In this document: positions 11,570 through 16,733 of the stretch, piece after piece | How positions within the stretch are numbered: the stretch's first letter is position 1 | How the letters are laid out: each line of letters begins with the position of its first letter | Virus record (IMG/VR): IMGVR_UViG_2802429251_000001 | Source of the DNA: a virus | Lineage: Duplodnaviria; Heunggongvirae; Uroviricota; Caudoviricetes | Length of the DNA: 20,174 nucleotides | Reading direction: 5' to 3' (one strand) | Position numbers and translations under genes: made by a program | The notes under the pieces: model-generated | Database searches by the model: none | Seen by the model: only the letters and a program-made list of their open reading frames with translations | What the model was told of the DNA's origin: nothing

Positions 11570-13450
11570 TTAATACTCCGTCACGTTTTCCTGTCGCCAC
11601 GCCTCGTCATATTCCGATTTCGGCATATTGGCGATGTAGCTATATGGCGATCCTGATTCAAGTTGCAGGAACTGGTGCGATTGCTCGTCAAGGAACAACG
11701 GGACACCACCTTCCCAACCTTCGCCGTTACGTTGTTTTTCAAGCATCAAAACAGATGCCGGAGACGCCAGTAGCTGTTCGTCCTTCTCTGACATCTTTTC
11801 ACCACTCTGAACTCTCTGTAACGCTCTCTCGCGAGCCTTGTTACGCCAGATGATGAAAAGGTTGTCTGTCAGGTCTGTTATCGCTCCAGAGCCTTTTACG
11901 TCCATTTTCCCGGTTGGTTTTTCTTCGCTGTCTCCTTTTCGCGAGTGAGTAACGAGAATGACGTGGGAGTTTGTTTTGTTTTTGAAGTCGCAAATCGAGT
12001 CAACAAACGCCTTCTGCCCGTTATAGTCATCGTCGCCTATGCCACATTTCATCAGGCTGTCGATGATGAATAACTGGATCCCGTATCGGCGGCGAGCGTA
12101 GTCGAATATTTCGATCAGCCTGTCGGCTTTCGCCGTTCCGGTCAGGCCAAACACCCAAAGTCTTTCGTCATAAAATTTAAATGCAGAGTCAATTTCCAGC
12201 ACTGGCGGAATCTTGCAGCACGTCGCCTGACGGGTAAGGCGCTTAAGGAGAATACCAGGCTTCAGCTCAAGTGACGCGATGCACGTCTTCACACCCTGAC
12301 GCATTGCCTCAAGTGCCATATGCCCGACAACCTCCGTTTTTCCGTGACCGTTCACACCATTGACCAGCGTCAACTCTGCCTCACGGAACTGGAATTTATC
12401 TGCCAGAGATTCCCACGGTGGATTAAACAGATACTGCTGCTTGCCGTAGAAAGCATTGATAGTGTCCTGGTAAAACTCTCGCGCACTGTAGAGTTCTTCA
12501 GGATCGAAGTAGGATGCCGTGCCGATGTACTGCCAGATTTCATCCTCGGTAACACCGTTCATCAGGCATTCGTTGATGTCTTTGTACGGCAGAGTAACAA
12601 GACGGCAACGATGTTCACCGAGTCGGCTTGCGATTTCCCTTGCGGCTTCACGACCAACATCATCAACGTCCATCGAGATGAATATTTCCTCAAACCTGTC
12701 GAGATTGTGATACTCAAACTCAATCCACTGCTGCTTAGCGCCTTTCCCGCCACCAAACGGCACGGATAACGCCGAGATGCCGTATTGCGCATAGCTCATA
12801 CAATCAATTTCGCCTTCGCAAAGTACAACCGCCCTCACGCCAGCGTCCAGAGCCTGCCATCCGAACAGACAAGGTTCGCAATCACCTTCTGCCATAATGA
12901 CTTTCTTCCCGTCCGGGCGCTCAGTGCTGATTCGCTTGACCTGCAACAACTCACCATCGCGTTTGTACGGAATCACCAGAGCATCCAGTTCCCGCTCTCC
13001 ATTCCACACCTTGCCGCTGACAACCTCGTAGCGCTTTACGATTTCTGGCGATATGCCACGCGATTGCAGGTACTCAAGATGGGATTCTGTTCTGGTAACG
13101 TAGCGGGCGATTTTCTTGCGATCAGGTCTGGAGAATTTCTTCTCACGTTTGGCATCGAAATGGTGATCGTCATCCTTGATACCGAGAAATGCTTTCGCTT
13201 CCTGCATAGCCTGATGCAGGTTAATTCCACGACATGCCATCCACAAATCAAGCATGTCACCGCCGTCTCCCTCAGCGAAATCAGCCCATTTTTTCTTGCC
13301 GCTAAGGTTGACCTTAAGGCTGTTTCCCTTGTCACCGTTGACGTTACCGGCAACCCACTCATGCCCCTCTTTCTTGCCATTTGGCAACAGGTGCGGAGCC
13401 ACCCTGTCAACCTGCGCCCAAAGCAGGTCGCTAAGTTCACTTGGCGTCAT
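11570..13450 (-). CDS. Replicative primase-helicase (Toprim domain plus DnaB-like helicase domain)
   Basis: 626 aa with Toprim-like acidic motifs (VVLCEGEIDCMS, FISMDVDDVGREAA), Walker A (NGVNGHGKTEV), Walker B-like (LFIIDSLMK) and HSRK. Occupies the position of lambda P. Confidence 0.8.
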   Translation of the reverse strand: MTPSELSDLLWAQVDRVAPHLLPNGKKEGHEWVAGNVNGDKGNSLKVNLSGKKKWADFAEGDGGDMLDLWMACRGINLHQAMQEAKAFLGIKDDDHHFDAKREKKFSRPDRKKIARYVTRTESHLEYLQSRGISPEIVKRYEVVSGKVWNGERELDALVIPYKRDGELLQVKRISTERPDGKKVIMAEGDCEPCLFGWQALDAGVRAVVLCEGEIDCMSYAQYGISALSVPFGGGKGAKQQWIEFEYHNLDRFEEIFISMDVDDVGREAAREIASRLGEHRCRLVTLPYKDINECLMNGVTEDEIWQYIGTASYFDPEELYSAREFYQDTINAFYGKQQYLFNPPWESLADKFQFREAELTLVNGVNGHGKTEVVGHMALEAMRQGVKTCIASLELKPGILLKRLTRQATCCKIPPVLEIDSAFKFYDERLWVFGLTGTAKADRLIEIFDYARRRYGIQLFIIDSLMKCGIGDDDYNGQKAFVDSICDFKNKTNSHVILVTHSRKGDSEEKPTGKMDVKGSGAITDLTDNLFIIWRNKARERALQRVQSGEKMSEKDEQLLASPASVLMLEKQRNGEGWEGGVPLFLDEQSHQFLQLESGSPYSYIANMPKSEYDEAWRQENVTEY

Positions 13451-13554
13451 GATTCCCTCAGATTGAGATTTTTAAACCAGAAATCGACAAACGAAATACT
13501 TAACCAGCCGTGGTTATAACCAGCGACCAGTAGCGATTTGATTTTTGATTTCAT
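13447..13554 (-). CDS. Small hypothetical ORF (35 aa) between O-like gene and primase-helicase
   Basis: Found by hand: MKSKIKSLLVAGYNHGWLSISFVDFWFKNLNLRES. ATG at 13554 lies 3 nt after the O-like stop; its TGA overlaps the helicase ATG (ATGA). AGGTGA 3 nt upstream. Could be a coupling artefact. Confidence 0.3.
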   Translation of the reverse strand: MKSKIKSLLVAGYNHGWLSISFVDFWFKNLNLRES

Positions 13555-13557
13555 GGT

Positions 13558-14418
13558 TCACCTGTCGAAAAACACGTAGCCAGTTTTCGATACGGTGATT
13601 GCGGATGATGGTTTGGATTGTGGTTGAATGGTTTCTGGCTTCTCGTCGTTCCAGCGTTGACCGTTCAGGTAGCTCGATGGTAACAACCTGTCGAATCCGA
13701 ACTGCTTACCATTCCTGCATGCGATGTCTTCTGCCAGCATCGTGGCAAACTCGCTTGCCGTACCCCTGGTAGTTTTACGCCATTCCCTGAACTGTGTTCT
13801 GAATGCCGAAGCTGCGTTTTTCTTCCCGGCCTTCCGCATGCCTGCACACCAGAATATTTCCTCGAATGCCTTGTCGGTTTCTTCGTGACGGTCAGGTGAT
13901 TTTTCACACTCCGTCCGAACACTTTCGGACATAGTGTTTTTATTATTTCTTTTTTCTTTTGTAATAGTTTCTTTTGTGTGTCCCTGTTTTGGTGACAGCG
14001 CTGTCACCGTTTTGGTGACACTTTTTGTCACCAATGCAGTGACATTATCACCAGAGTAGTGACACCCTTCGATTTGCCATTCCTCGATGTTCTTGTTAGG
14101 CCCGATTTGCTGGCCTTCGCGAAGGATAACCTTCATCGCGATAAGCTCATTCTTGGCCTTGTTTACCTTCTGTCTTGGCAGCCTGGTAATTTGAGCTAAC
14201 TGACTATCAGAGATGCGATCCATCTTTTTACCGTAGCCGTATGTTTTACGGCATATGGCGTGGGCAACCTTGCTCTGATTTTTCGTTAAATCTGCGCCGA
14301 TAAGCTCTTCATACAGGGCATTTGCAAGACGGGTATAACCATCTTCAACTTCTGCCACACGACGCTCCACAGGCCGTTGTGAAGGCCTTAAATGTGTTAC
14401 GGTTGCAAGATTACTCAT
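13558..14418 (-). CDS. Replication initiator, lambda O-like N-terminal domain
   Basis: 286 aa. N-terminal motifs [44 protein letters not shown] parallel recalled lambda O (DDGYARL, ADLTKRQFKV, RKTYGWNKPMDRITDSQL, GPNKNISEW). Contains an internal iteron cluster. Confidence 0.85.
13934..14065. repeat. Putative origin of replication: AT-rich tract plus palindromic iterons inside the O-like gene
   Basis: AT-rich run 13934-13980, then GGTGACAGCGCTGTCACC (13991-14008, perfect palindrome), GGTGACACTTTTTGTCACC (14013-14031), and further GTGACA copies at 14040 and 14059. Core motifs spaced about 11 bp apart. Same architecture as the lambda ori inside O. Confidence 0.55.
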
Positions 14419-14557
14419 GACCTTTCTCCTTCTGCATCAGCTTCACTTTTTCCAACTCAGCCCGGAATCGACCAGGTTGCTTGAAGCTGGACAGGAAGCG
14501 ATCACGTAGTATGTGTTTGTGAATTTTGTCCTGGTAAGGACTGAGTTGTTTTGTCAT
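14411..14557 (-). CDS. Small hypothetical ORF (48 aa) between the pO/oop region and the O-like gene
   Basis: Found by hand: [48 protein letters not shown]. Uses what I recall as the lambda O initiation region (CAGGAGTCATTATGACAAA); its TAA overlaps the O-like ATG (ATGAGTAA). Confidence 0.4.
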
Positions 14558-14567
14558 AATGACTCCT

Positions 14568-14644
14568 GTGGATTGATCCAGTAATGACCTCAGAATTCCA
14601 TCTGGATTTGTTCAGAACGCTCGGTTGCCGCCGGGCGTTTTTTA
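14568..14644 (+). ncRNA. oop: oop antisense RNA (lambda type)
   Basis: Plus strand GTGGATTGATCCAGTAATGACCTCAGAATTCCATCTGGATTTGTTCAGAACGCTCGGTTGCCGCCGGGCGTTTTTTATT matches recalled 77 nt lambda oop RNA with a few substitutions and ends in its terminator hairpin plus U-tract. Antisense to the cII 3' end. Confidence 0.7.
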
Positions 14645-14883
14645 TTGGTGAGAATCGAAGCAACTTGTCGTGCCAATCGAGCCATGTCGTCGTCAACGAC
14701 ACCCCATTCAAGAACAGCAAGCAGCATTGAGAACTTTGGAATCCAGTCCCTCTTCCACCTGCTGATCTGCGACTTATCAACTCCCACAGCTTCCGCTGTC
14801 TTCTCAGTTCCAAGCATTGCGATTTTGTTAAGCAACGCACTCTCGATTCGTAGAGCCTCGTTGCGTTTGTTTGCACGAACCAT
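14590..14883 (-). CDS. cII: Transcriptional activator cII (lambda type)
   Basis: [97 protein letters not shown], essentially lambda cII (97 aa). Lambda-like RBS TAAGGAAATACTTACATATG. The track ORF is an N-terminal extension. Confidence 0.95.
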
Positions 14884-14940
14884 ATGTAAGTATTTCCTTA
14901 ACAAATAAGAAGTTATGCGCATCAACTTATGCGCGTTGTA

Positions 14941-14985
14941 TTCCCGCATTTCGGCGGGAATGAGGACCATGACTGTTAAAGAGCA
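14941..14985 (-). promoter_or_regulatory. nutR (boxA plus boxB)
   Basis: Minus-strand RNA UGCUCUUUAACA (consensus-like boxA) followed 12 nt later by UUCCCGCCGAAAUGCGGGAA (hairpin). Lies between cro and cII. The same boxB sequence recurs at nutL. Confidence 0.65.
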
Positions 14986-14991
14986 ATTTGC

Positions 14992-15177
14992 TTATGCCGC
15001 TTTGCGGTAAGCGCTTTCTTGATACTTCAGGGCGCCAGCTGTAACGACTTCCAGTCGATAGGCGTCTTTCTCTGGGATGACTTCCTTCCACTGAGAGACT
15101 GCTGCGTCGCTAATGCCTAACGCTTTAGCTACAGCACGCTGGGTTCCGAAGTGGTCGATAACATCTTTCTTGTACAT
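14992..15177 (-). CDS. cro: Cro repressor (P22 type)
   Basis: 61 aa, MYKKDVIDHFGTQRAVAKALGISDAAVSQWKEVIPEKDAYRLEVVTAGALKYQESAYRKAA, matches recalled P22 Cro. Divergent from the c2 repressor gene. Confidence 0.9.
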   Translation of the reverse strand: MYKKDVIDHFGTQRAVAKALGISDAAVSQWKEVIPEKDAYRLEVVTAGALKYQESAYRKAA

Positions 15178-15189
15178 AGACTCGCTCCG

Positions 15190-15258
15190 AAATTAAAGAA
15201 CACTTAAATTATCCACTAAAGGAATCTTAAGTCAAGTTTATTTAAGATGTCTTAACTA
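15190..15258. promoter_or_regulatory. OR operator cluster with PR (minus strand) and PRM (plus strand)
   Basis: Three sites resembling the P22 operator consensus ATTTAAGA-NN-TCTTAAAT at about 15192-15209, 15215-15232 and 15240-15257. PR on minus strand: -35 TTGACT (plus 15230-15235), 17 bp spacer, -10 ATAATT (plus 15207-15212). c2 ATG at 15258 abuts the operators, suggesting a leaderless mRNA. Confidence 0.7.
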
Positions 15259-15908
15259 TGAAAACTCAATTGATGGGAGAGCGCATTCGCGCTCGGAGAA
15301 AAGAACTCAAGATCAGGCAGGCCGCACTTGGAAAGATGGTCGGCGTGTCTAATGTTGCCATATCTCAGTGGGAACGCTCTGAGACAGAGCCAAATGGAGA
15401 GAATCTTCTCGCCCTGGCTAATGCGTTGAAGTGTTCCCCTGACTATCTGATGAAAGGAGAGGGAAGTCTTTCAAACATTGCCTATCACAGTAGGCATGAT
15501 CCAAGAGGGTCATACCCTCTGATTAGCTGGGTGAGCGCAGGATGCTGGATGGAAGCTGTAGAACCATATCATAAGCGTGCAATAGATAACTGGTACGATA
15601 CAACCGTAGACTGTTCAGAAGATTCGTTTTGGTTGGACGTGAAAGGAGACTCAATGACGGCTCCGGCCGGTCTCAGTATCCCTGAAGGAATGATAATACT
15701 CGTCGATCCTGAAGTAGAGCCGCGTAACGGGAAACTGGTAGTTGCAAAGCTCGAAGGAGAAAACGAGGCAACTTTCAAGAAGTTAGTTATTGATGCAGGC
15801 AGGAAGTTTCTAAAACCACTTAACCCACAATATCCGATGATCGAGATCAACGGAAACTGCAAAATCATCGGCGTAGTTGTCGATGCAAAACTAGCAAACC
15901 TTCCATAA
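15258..15908 (+). CDS. c2: Prophage repressor c2 (P22 type, HTH plus LexA-like S24 autocleavage domain)
   Basis: 216 aa, MKTQLMGERIRARRKELKIRQAALGKMVGVSNVAISQWERSETEPNGENLL...GDSMTAPAG...KLVVAKLEGENEATFKKLVIDAGRKFLKPLNPQYPMIEINGNCKIIGVVVDAKLANLP, matches recalled P22 C2 with a few substitutions. Confidence 0.95.
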   Translation: MKTQLMGERIRARRKELKIRQAALGKMVGVSNVAISQWERSETEPNGENLLALANALKCSPDYLMKGEGSLSNIAYHSRHDPRGSYPLISWVSAGCWMEAVEPYHKRAIDNWYDTTVDCSEDSFWLDVKGDSMTAPAGLSIPEGMIILVDPEVEPRNGKLVVAKLEGENEATFKKLVIDAGRKFLKPLNPQYPMIEINGNCKIIGVVVDAKLANLP

Positions 15909-15932
15909 GGGGGCATTCGCCCCTTTTTTTAT
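15908..15932 (+). terminator. Intrinsic terminator after the repressor gene
   Basis: AAGGGGGC-ATTC-GCCCCTT hairpin followed by a T-run, directly after the c2 stop. Confidence 0.6.
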
Positions 15933-15970
15933 TTCCTTTAAAAATCAAAGCCAAACTTAAGTTACGAAAG

Positions 15971-16028
15971 AAAATTTAAGTTTTCTTCAAAAATACTCTT
16001 GACCATTAATTAAAGAGATCTTAAATTT
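15971..16028 (+). promoter_or_regulatory. OL operators and PL promoter
   Basis: P22-consensus-like operator sites at about 15973-15990 and 16008-16025 (AATTAAAGAGATCTTAAATT). PL: -35 TTGACC (15999-16004), 17 bp spacer, -10 TAAATT (16022-16027). Confidence 0.6.
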
Positions 16029-16073
16029 AAGCCATCAGCAGGACGATGGTAGCCAAACGGAACAGATTGGCAG

Positions 16074-16116
16074 GCTCTTTAACATTGATGGGATTGTCCC
16101 GCCGAAATGCGGGAAC
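16074..16116 (+). promoter_or_regulatory. nutL (boxA plus boxB)
   Basis: GCTCTTTAACA (16074-16084) followed 12 nt later by TCCCGCCGAAATGCGGGAA (16097-16116), the same hairpin sequence as in the nutR transcript. Confidence 0.65.
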
Positions 16117-16433
16117 CAAAGAGTAGTTGGCTTTGGGGTGACGTGACGTGAAGTGCAGCTGCACGACGGCAACCGGAAGATAAGCACCCGGCGCGTCACC
16201 GCCAAAGTCAATTCCATAGGCGTTATGCAGCCGCCACCATATTCAAGAAAGCTGCACAAGAGGTAGGAGGATTTATGTGAATACTTACATTCAATTGAGA
16301 GATTAATTAAATAGAACTGATCGAGCAGAGTCCATAAAGGCTCATAAATGCTCTTCCATCCCCGTCTAATTGGCGGGGAAGGAAACCACTTTGTAATAAA
16401 AAAAATTCCAAAGTTGTTTCATCGGAGGTCAAC

Positions 16434-16733
16434 ATGACAGTAGTCATTACATATCTGGCTGACGATAACGCCAGAAATCGCCGCAGAGCACGCAGACAGG
16501 CTCAACGTGAACAGGCAATGCAAGAGCAGCGACTGGCGCGAAAAATTGCGCTAAAGCTCTCTGGTTGCGTCAGAGCAGATAAAGCAGCATCACTCGGAAG
16601 CCTTCGCTGCAAGAAGGCAGAAGAAGTCGAGCGTAAACAGAATCGTATTTACTACCGCAAGCCACGCAGTGAAATGGGTGTGACTTGTGTTGGTCGCCAG
16701 AAAATGAAATTAGGCAGCAAACCACTTATTTGA
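16434..16733 (+). CDS. N: N-like early antiterminator
   Basis: 99 aa with N-terminal arginine-rich motif (DNARNRRRARRQAQREQ). GGAGG RBS 5 nt upstream. First gene after PL and nutL. Confidence 0.8.
   Translation: MTVVITYLADDNARNRRRARRQAQREQAMQEQRLARKIALKLSGCVRADKAASLGSLRCKKAEEVERKQNRIYYRKPRSEMGVTCVGRQKMKLGSKPLI

Follow-up and report, generated by a model that had tools for sequence, protein, structure and literature searches.

The window analysed here, 20,174 nt of DNA, is a lambdoid (pro)phage in reverse orientation, and it raises the question of what a frame of 48 codons is doing immediately ahead of the replication initiator gene, on the Shine-Dalgarno (SD) sequence and start codon that in phage lambda serve the initiator gene O itself. 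The original prediction had considered a leader peptide, a small regulatory protein and a by-product of recombination. We therefore set out what the frame is, where its borders lie, how it is constrained and which of these readings the evidence favours.

The 48-codon frame is the lambdoid-phage gene orf48

The frame occupies positions 14411–14557 on the minus strand (48 codons plus TAA) and encodes, as had been described, a basic peptide of 48 residues (pI 10.1, net charge about +6). The peptide matched the Pfam family PF10872 (DUF2740) over profile positions 1–43 of 43, scoring 99.4 bits where the gathering threshold is 27 bits (E = 8.9e-29), and it also matched PHROG 1913 (phrog_1913, E = 2.7e-28). 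It is 100% identical in amino acid sequence to orf48 of HK022, hkaW of HK620 and HK630 and H0097 of VT2-Sakai, and the identical protein is also found in mEp043, mEp235, Stx2 II and others; the proteins of P22 (orf48) and P22-like Salmonella phages share 85% identity with it, and that of an Erwinia phage 58%. In the HK022 entry U02466, the same ORF carries the annotation 'orf48 gene product; unknown; sequence well conserved in phage P22', and the P22 record has orf48 at the same place (start 32349) with an oop promoter across its start. Hayes 2012 (PMC3349717) placed orf48 between oop and the initiator gene, and PGAP names the product 'DUF2740 family protein'. Given the Pfam and PHROG matches, the HK022 and P22 annotations, the placement by Hayes 2012 and the PGAP naming, the frame is an already known gene, orf48, which the original prediction did not recognise.

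The window protein shares the traits of the family, namely a length of about 46–48 residues and, in alignments, the core HK[NH]I[LI]RDR..L, and the ORF lies where the family usually lies, after cII/oop and directly upstream of an initiator gene that it overlaps. Set beside P22 and HK022, it belongs to the same family and has the same length, the same 8-nt overlap, the same junction with lambda at 38694 and the same gene order (cII/c1, oop/pO, orf48, initiator); nothing material differs. Two labels attached to the gene or its name were set aside. The PHROG label 'tail protein' is a mis-annotation, as the gene lies in the early-right replication operon and the source records say unknown, and the 'orf48: gnarl1' of PMC12373910 is a gene of Klebsiella phage KpV79 that shares the name by a coincidence of numbering.

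Lambda homology ends eight nucleotides inside orf48

In an ungapped comparison with the lambda reference NC_001416, the window was homologous to lambda over 14550–14900 (minus strand; lambda 38343–38693), and the right edge of this block is a mosaic joint 8 nt inside orf48. The block holds the lambda allele of cII (14590–14883, minus; Phage_CII, E = 1.7e-48; 98% nucleotide identity to lambda); cro lies at 14992–15177 on the minus strand and cI is on the plus strand. Identity to lambda was 288/293 (98.3%) over cII, 31/33 in the cII–O intergenic stretch, which contains the 5' end of oop and the SD, and 8/8 in ATGACAAA, beyond which it fell to the random level (17/60). The match to lambda through cII, oop and pO as far as the O start codon is therefore as had been described. 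As the first mismatch falls at lambda 38694, past the shared 8 nt, the proposed lambda O start CAGGAGTCATTATGACAAA is correctly placed, and the misplacement that would have spoken against the proposal was not found.

The SD, the ATG and the 8 nt from the start are the same in lambda, where they begin O itself with no small cistron intervening, and past ATGACAAA the two sequences are unrelated. Relative to lambda, the frame is thus an extra cistron that starts from the SD and ATG used by O there, as the prediction had it. We also considered and rejected the idea that the frame is a remnant of O: similarity stops after the 8 nt, with 25–28% identity thereafter, and Pfam gives DUF2740 only. For a lambda/P22 hybrid, Hayes 2012 (PMC3349717) reports that the departure from the lambda sequence falls inside pO, at base -19 (38694), and the junction in the window is exactly this one.

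Among sampled loci, the cII and initiator types that flank orf48 combine freely: HK022 cII with HK022 O (30 loci), lambda cII with a lambda-O-like initiator (21 loci), HK022 cII with a lambda-O-like initiator (15 loci) and lambda cII with HK022 O (15 loci), with a DnaB-like helicase, a primase-helicase or P22 gp12 as the helicase partner. The mix in the window, a lambda-allele cII with a lambda-O-like initiator and a primase-helicase, also occurs in phage vB_EcoP-720R6 and at 21 sampled loci. Because the two types combine freely, both edges of orf48 are recombination joints, and this part of the claim of an insertion at a mosaic junction stands. The insertion itself is less secure. The 8-mers that bound the gene, ATGACAAA and ATGAGTAA, differ at two of eight positions, and a deletion between them would give exactly the lambda O start ATGACAAAT (MTN...); since so simple a deletion could produce the lambda arrangement, insertion here and loss in lambda would both account for the difference. 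In the literature, lambda is viewed as the phage without orf48. The gene is also found without a preceding cII/pO, in the distant locus L150 and in about 7 of 141 loci, and there it keeps its overlap with the initiator; the initiator is for this reason the tighter of the two partners.

Both ends of orf48 carry other signals

The orf48 SD (AGGAG, 14563–14567, minus) was located from the sequence and the lambda alignment, in which it is the SD of O. For the oop promoter pO, an extended -10 (TGnCATAAT) was placed by homology at 14552–14560 on the plus strand (TGTCATAAT). It is the complement of the orf48 ATG and codon 2, and the promoter annotated for oop in P22 (32346–32374, minus) is its positional homologue. 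Loci that have the pO box nearly always carry NCA (ACA, CCA, GCA or TCA) as codon 2, whereby the TG is kept. A candidate -35-like hexamer, TGGTAA (TGGTCA in P22), lies inside codons 7–9 at 14532–14537 (plus), and in P22 the distal end of the annotated promoter falls there too; Hayes 2012 (PMC3349717) noted that the -35 regions on the right of the -19 junction are distinct.

An oop-like antisense RNA, nearly identical to that of lambda, would run from 14568 to 14647 (plus), its 5' end being set by homology to lambda, and a terminator scan found its terminator stem at 14614–14641, followed by a T run. The 5' end directly adjoins the orf48 SD; in Hayes 2012 (Fig. S1 legend, PMC3349717) it is given as -10 relative to the ATG. 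An Rfam scan of 13000–16500 returned only chance-level matches (E about 0.2).

At the other end lies the O-like replication initiator (13558–14418, minus; PF04492, Phage_rep_O, E = 1.2e-37; TIGR01610), which starts MSNLATV and, as had been claimed, aligns with lambda O from its own Met1 (M[ST]N...). Overlap of the small-ORF stop with the initiator start had also been claimed, and it is 8 nt long (14411–14418, ATGAGTAA) and holds the initiator ATG. This arrangement is conserved: of 141 loci, 138 have the ATG 8 nt ahead of the orf48 stop; in the rare genes with altered C-termini (KEKRS*, KGKRP*) the overlap persists, by ATGA. The initiator has an SD of its own, AAGGAG (14426–14431, minus), in orf48 codons 43–44, so placed that SD and start both fall within the last eight codons (about 24 nt), and an SD-like purine run is retained in divergent homologues. 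A repeat search found four iteron-like repeats, TGTCACC-N6-GTGACA, at 13979–14064 inside the O-like gene, which by analogy with the lambda ori in O mark a putative origin. The module partner of the initiator is a primase-helicase (11570–13450, minus; phrog_239, E = 1.6e-171; Toprim_2, AAA_25, DnaB_C).

The orf48 frame is under purifying selection

We gathered 141 orf48 loci from genomes, IMG/VR and metagenomes; the gene occurs in phages of Escherichia, Salmonella, Citrobacter, Klebsiella, Enterobacter, Atlantibacter and Erwinia. Absence or interruption in relatives, which would have spoken against the frame, is not what the loci show: it is intact in nearly all of them. Among 11 divergent alleles, with up to 50 differences in 147 nt, dN/dS (Nei-Gojobori, NG86) was 0.13–0.46 in frame and about 0.6–2.7 in the two shifted frames, so that the purifying selection the prediction had proposed to look for is present.

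These data bear directly on the suggestion that the frame is a non-functional by-product of recombination. Both ends of orf48 do coincide with mosaic joints, as such an origin would have it, but of a by-product one would hardly expect an unbroken frame at nearly every one of 141 loci, occurrence in 400 of the 5426 complete E. coli genomes, a spread over phages of seven genera from Escherichia to Erwinia and purifying selection. The conservation data effectively refute this reading, to which we give next to no weight.

It could instead be argued that the conservation belongs to overlapping DNA or RNA elements (pO, mRNA structure and the initiator ribosome-binding site) and that the open frame is incidental. 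Such elements do take up much of the gene, with pO in the first ~26 nt, the initiator SD and start in the last ~24 nt and possibly a helix arm in codons 16–20, and the near-constant NCA at codon 2 where the pO box is present is a nucleotide-level signal. We therefore used as a test segment codons 21–41, which hold no promoter, SD or helix arm and thus no known nucleotide-level element. Here pN/pS was 0.04–0.65, with seven synonymous and one non-synonymous differences from P22 and ten and two, respectively, from a Citrobacter prophage. An incidental frame would not be expected to show this synonymous excess, which is specific to the orf48 frame and includes mid-gene, nor to stay open in species with 48/147 nt differences, nor to gather its substitutions at third positions (entropy 0.47, versus 0.30 and 0.24 at the other two). 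We consider this explanation very improbable.

An open frame of 48 codons is by itself unremarkable ((61/64)^48, about 0.1), but the Pfam match (99.4 versus 27 bits) and the pattern of conservation are far beyond chance. Taken together, orf48 is almost certainly a bona fide small-protein gene. Its family is narrow, comprising 54 clusters at 90% identity with essentially all named sources in the Enterobacterales. A profile search of 1.84 billion representatives gave 18 matches only, all of them enterobacterial small ORFs, fragments or repeats, and no larger protein carrying a DUF2740 domain. An apparent fusion to a DUF4752 protein in Salmonella phage PSP2-22 was set aside, as the record is marked UNVERIFIED_ORG and looks chimeric.

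A predicted mRNA helix may cover the initiator start codon

An RNAalifold consensus from ten divergent sequences predicted a helix between a 5' arm at 14500–14511 (minus; orf48 nt 47–58, codons 16–20, ILRDR) and a 3' arm at 14412–14422 (minus; orf48 nt 136–146, GGUCAUGAGUA) that contains the initiator AUG. Of 35 unique sequences, 34 retain the whole 7-bp core, CGUGAUC/GGUCAUG, and the few core changes seen are from U.G to C-G or to U-A. Across the same 35 sequences, the bulged A51, a third codon position, takes four forms, Arg18 is encoded by CGT throughout and Arg20 by CGC, CGG, CGT or CGA. Pair probability reached at least 0.7 in 10–11 of 14 divergent sequences, and in the distant locus L148 the AUG pairs with the same Arg codon despite a different overlap register. 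The alignment held no compensatory covariation in the helix, since coding and the start codon also constrain both arms. The whole-region fold z-score was only -1.7, and a synonymous recoding control was marginal, with 6.5% of recoded sequences occluding the AUG as well as the native one and 13.5% forming the core helix equally. We accordingly treat this predicted pairing of codons 16–20 with the initiator AUG as a lead, not a result.

orf48 resembles plasmid leader peptides in geometry

In the plasmid systems tap/repA of IncFII R1, with CopA, and repY/repZ of IncI-alpha ColIb-P9, with Inc RNA, leader peptides couple translation of the replication initiator, and the peptide sequences of tap and repY are irrelevant. 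The orf48 locus shares with both a short ORF upstream of a replication initiator that overlaps its start (by ATGAGTAA or ATGA here), a nearby antisense RNA, as the oop 5' end abuts the orf48 SD, and, more tentatively, a predicted structure that would hide the initiator start. It differs from them in that the initiator keeps its own SD and in that oop is known for acting against cII mRNA. A further difference lies in the peptide, as the amino acid sequence of Orf48 is under purifying selection. The likeness to plasmid leaders thus holds for geometry and fails on the irrelevance of the peptide sequence.

If orf48 were a pure cis-acting leader of the tap or repY type, only the act of translating it would matter, by opening or feeding the initiator start, oop would regulate it and the peptide would have no function. 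A short ORF that runs over this start at 138 of 141 loci, the predicted helix that would occlude the AUG and the oop 5' end at -10, adjoining the SD, are all in keeping with this, as is the presence in the same slot, in other phages, of a non-homologous 53-residue ORF that overlaps the initiator by 14 nt. The amino acid sequence is, however, conserved beyond any nucleotide need, with the low pN/pS of codons 21–41 set against values of about 1 or above in the other frames; charged residues are invariant (D19, R20, R30, E34, E36 and K39, with R18 nearly so); the length is fixed at 46–48 residues; and the initiator retains an SD of its own. This selection at the amino acid level argues against a pure leader, which we consider improbable, while coupling stays plausible.

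Small overlapping ORFs accompany replication modules with their own helicase

To sample the slot without regard to its content, 109 IMG/VR contigs were chosen solely by the conserved pO/SD box, blind to what lies downstream. The initiator followed directly after the ATG at 43 loci, and of the 37 of these that were classified, 33 had lambda P, four had an unclassified partner and none had a phage helicase. orf48 followed at 26 loci, where all 20 recognised partners were DnaB-like helicases (13) or primase-helicases (7), and an HK97 gp53-type ORF of 53 residues at 40 loci, with DnaB-like helicases at 31 and primase-helicases at three; among the partners classified, lambda P was never found with either. 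There is one exception, locus L092, in which orf48 occurs together with lambda P. The association is striking: a small overlapping ORF of the orf48 or the gp53 type goes with modules that bring their own helicase, and lambda-P-type modules are without such an ORF. It may, though, mirror a single lambda O–P lineage.

The HK97 gp53-type ORF occupies the same slot as orf48, taking its start, as orf48 does, from the conserved SD and ATG within pO, and it likewise overlaps the initiator and accompanies helicase-encoding modules. The first ~11 codons, which lie over pO, are common to both (MTKRRKKYQEK in gp53, MTK..S.YQDK in Orf48). Past residue 11 the two are unalike, with an hhalign probability of 0.7%, which rules out homology there, and the gp53 type has no Pfam family.

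A probable trans-acting role for the Orf48 peptide

AlphaFold2 modelled Orf48 as a two-helix hairpin, with helices at residues 7–23 and 28–44 (pLDDT 80). A sequence search of the PDB with Orf48 gave nothing below E = 1, and Foldseek with the model gave no match in the PDB and none that was significant in BFVD. PADLOC (defence and anti-defence) and NCBIfam likewise gave no match, and neither Rop/Rom nor lambda CIII matched in sequence or fold (Pfam, PDB, Foldseek). With no informative fold match, no target can be named for Orf48, and searches of the literature with DUF2740, PF10872, hkaW and translational coupling returned no functional study of orf48 or experiment on it.

A small protein acting in trans need not concern the initiator at all. 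Orf48 could act by way of cII/oop on the choice between lysis and lysogeny, for instance by binding RNA duplexes as Rop does, or serve host take-over, and the overlap would then be mere operon packing. The usual place right after cII/oop with the 5' end embedded in pO, the predicted basic helical hairpin and the high conservation of the gene while both neighbours vary, as for a conserved host-factor or RNA target, would suit such a role. It fits less well with the loci away from cII/pO, in which orf48 is still joined to an initiator, with the correlation between its presence and the type of replication module or with the lack of a Rop, CIII or other family match. We regard a role unrelated to the initiator as unlikely, although less so than a pure leader.

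Discussion

The reading that we favour for orf48 is that of a trans-acting small protein that is also coupled to the initiator. The replication block of the pR transcript begins with orf48, and ribosomes would load at its strong, conserved SD and ATG, a sequence that doubles as the extended -10 of the oop promoter on the other strand. They would read 48 codons and terminate 5 nt beyond the AUG of the O-like initiator. Because termination would fall so close to this AUG, initiator synthesis is probably coupled to orf48 translation, through termination–reinitiation, with opening of the helix between codons 16–20 and the AUG as a possible contribution. As the initiator has its own SD, the coupling is perhaps partial or unnecessary. 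The purifying selection on the amino acid sequence makes it likely that the peptide acts in trans as well, and it may do so as an accessory of modules that bring their own helicase. That this action lies in replication is a more tentative proposal, and we hold it somewhat doubtful. Lambda replicates without orf48, and the gene is therefore not universally required. As a whole, a real protein, coupled to the initiator and most likely also acting in trans, seems the best explanation of the locus, and we put moderate confidence in it.

Lambda-P-type modules hijack host DnaB. On a more speculative view, which we think unlikely as it stands, Orf48 and, in parallel, the gp53-type peptide could be dedicated accessories of lambdoid modules with their own helicase. 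Each would work in two ways: as a coupler by which initiator output is set, with oop as a possible gate in the manner of CopA on tap/repA, and in trans as a hairpin in contact with the initiator, the helicase or a replication factor of the host. Lambda-P modules would have dispensed with such a peptide.

As a finding, the ORF is ordinary, as it has appeared in annotations ever since P22 and HK022 were sequenced. Few pieces of the lambdoid early-right operon are nevertheless as well conserved, and it is identical in phages with differing cII, initiator and helicase genes. If orf48 controls initiator synthesis or helps phage helicases, it would be a new component in a textbook replication system, and it would then also be relevant to the replication and induction of Stx phages.

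Probable record and annotation errors surrounding orf48

The PHROG 1913 family, to which the small initiator-overlapping gene orf48 belongs, carries the label 'tail protein', and from there it has spread to the orf48 annotation of numerous RefSeq phages (for example NC_002371 orf48, NC_019706 and NC_070949). It is almost certainly a mis-annotation; orf48 is an early-operon gene. Two further records call for caution. The orf48 found on a 386-bp contig of Xanthomonas pisi DSM 18956 (L011, grouped with L009, a Shimwellia pseudoproteus locus) encodes a protein with 100% identity to the E. coli version, and probably represents assembly contamination rather than a true extension of host range. In Salmonella phage PSP2-22 (L006; ON886116, UNVERIFIED_ORG), an in-frame fusion joins orf48 codons to a DUF4752 protein. 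Lambdoid genes (cIII, kil) stand alongside T7-like ones (ligase, RNA polymerase) in this record, which looks like a chimeric assembly.

Mosaic boundaries and elements of the replication region

Identity to lambda (98%) begins abruptly approximately 17 nt upstream of cII, where window position 14900 corresponds to lambda 38343, and cro (14992-15177), cI and the pR region are not lambda-like. The 351-bp cII-oop segment is therefore a discrete mosaic module of its own. Downstream of orf48 in the viral contig IMGVR_UViG_2600255177_000002 (L088), the overlap at ATGAGTAA is with a non-initiator gene encoding a 200-aa protein (MSNDFFGLPEITGSNY...), and the next gene encodes a replication-type protein of 246 aa. 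It appears that an additional cassette has entered precisely at the 8-nt joint.

Within orf48 itself, nucleotides 17-30 form a perfect 5-bp inverted repeat, GTCCT-TACC-AGGAC (14528-14541, plus strand), that covers the -35-like region of the oop promoter pO. Almost every orf48 allele retains this repeat, which folds into a small hairpin in the consensus structure. Either a protein binds there, or coding constraint alone could account for the conservation; both readings are possible.

The O-like gene contains four iteron-like repeats, TGTCACC-N6-GTGACA, at 13979-14064 with a spacing of 20-24 bp, adjoined by a T-rich stretch at 13940-13978. Together these are presumed to constitute the replication origin, the layout of which is the same as in lambda. 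The O-like gene is separated from the primase-helicase gene by a second micro-ORF of 35 aa (13447-13554, minus strand; phrog_21848, E=4e-26), which starts 3 nt past the O stop and shares 4 nt with the primase-helicase start. In phage vB_EcoP-720R6 this micro-ORF is annotated as hypothetical.

Small ORFs and helicase-type modules

Among the IMG/VR loci L151-L270, 109 contigs have the conserved pO/SD box. The initiator-overlapping small ORF is orf48 in 26 of these and of the HK97 gp53 type in 40, and it is confined to modules whose encoded helicase is of the DnaB-like or primase-helicase type. The initiator lies directly at the ATG in 43/109 contigs, the partner being a lambda-P-type loader in 33 of those classified. 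One locus, L092, in which orf48 is combined with lambda P, is an exception to the association between small ORF and helicase module, which may reflect lineage linkage.
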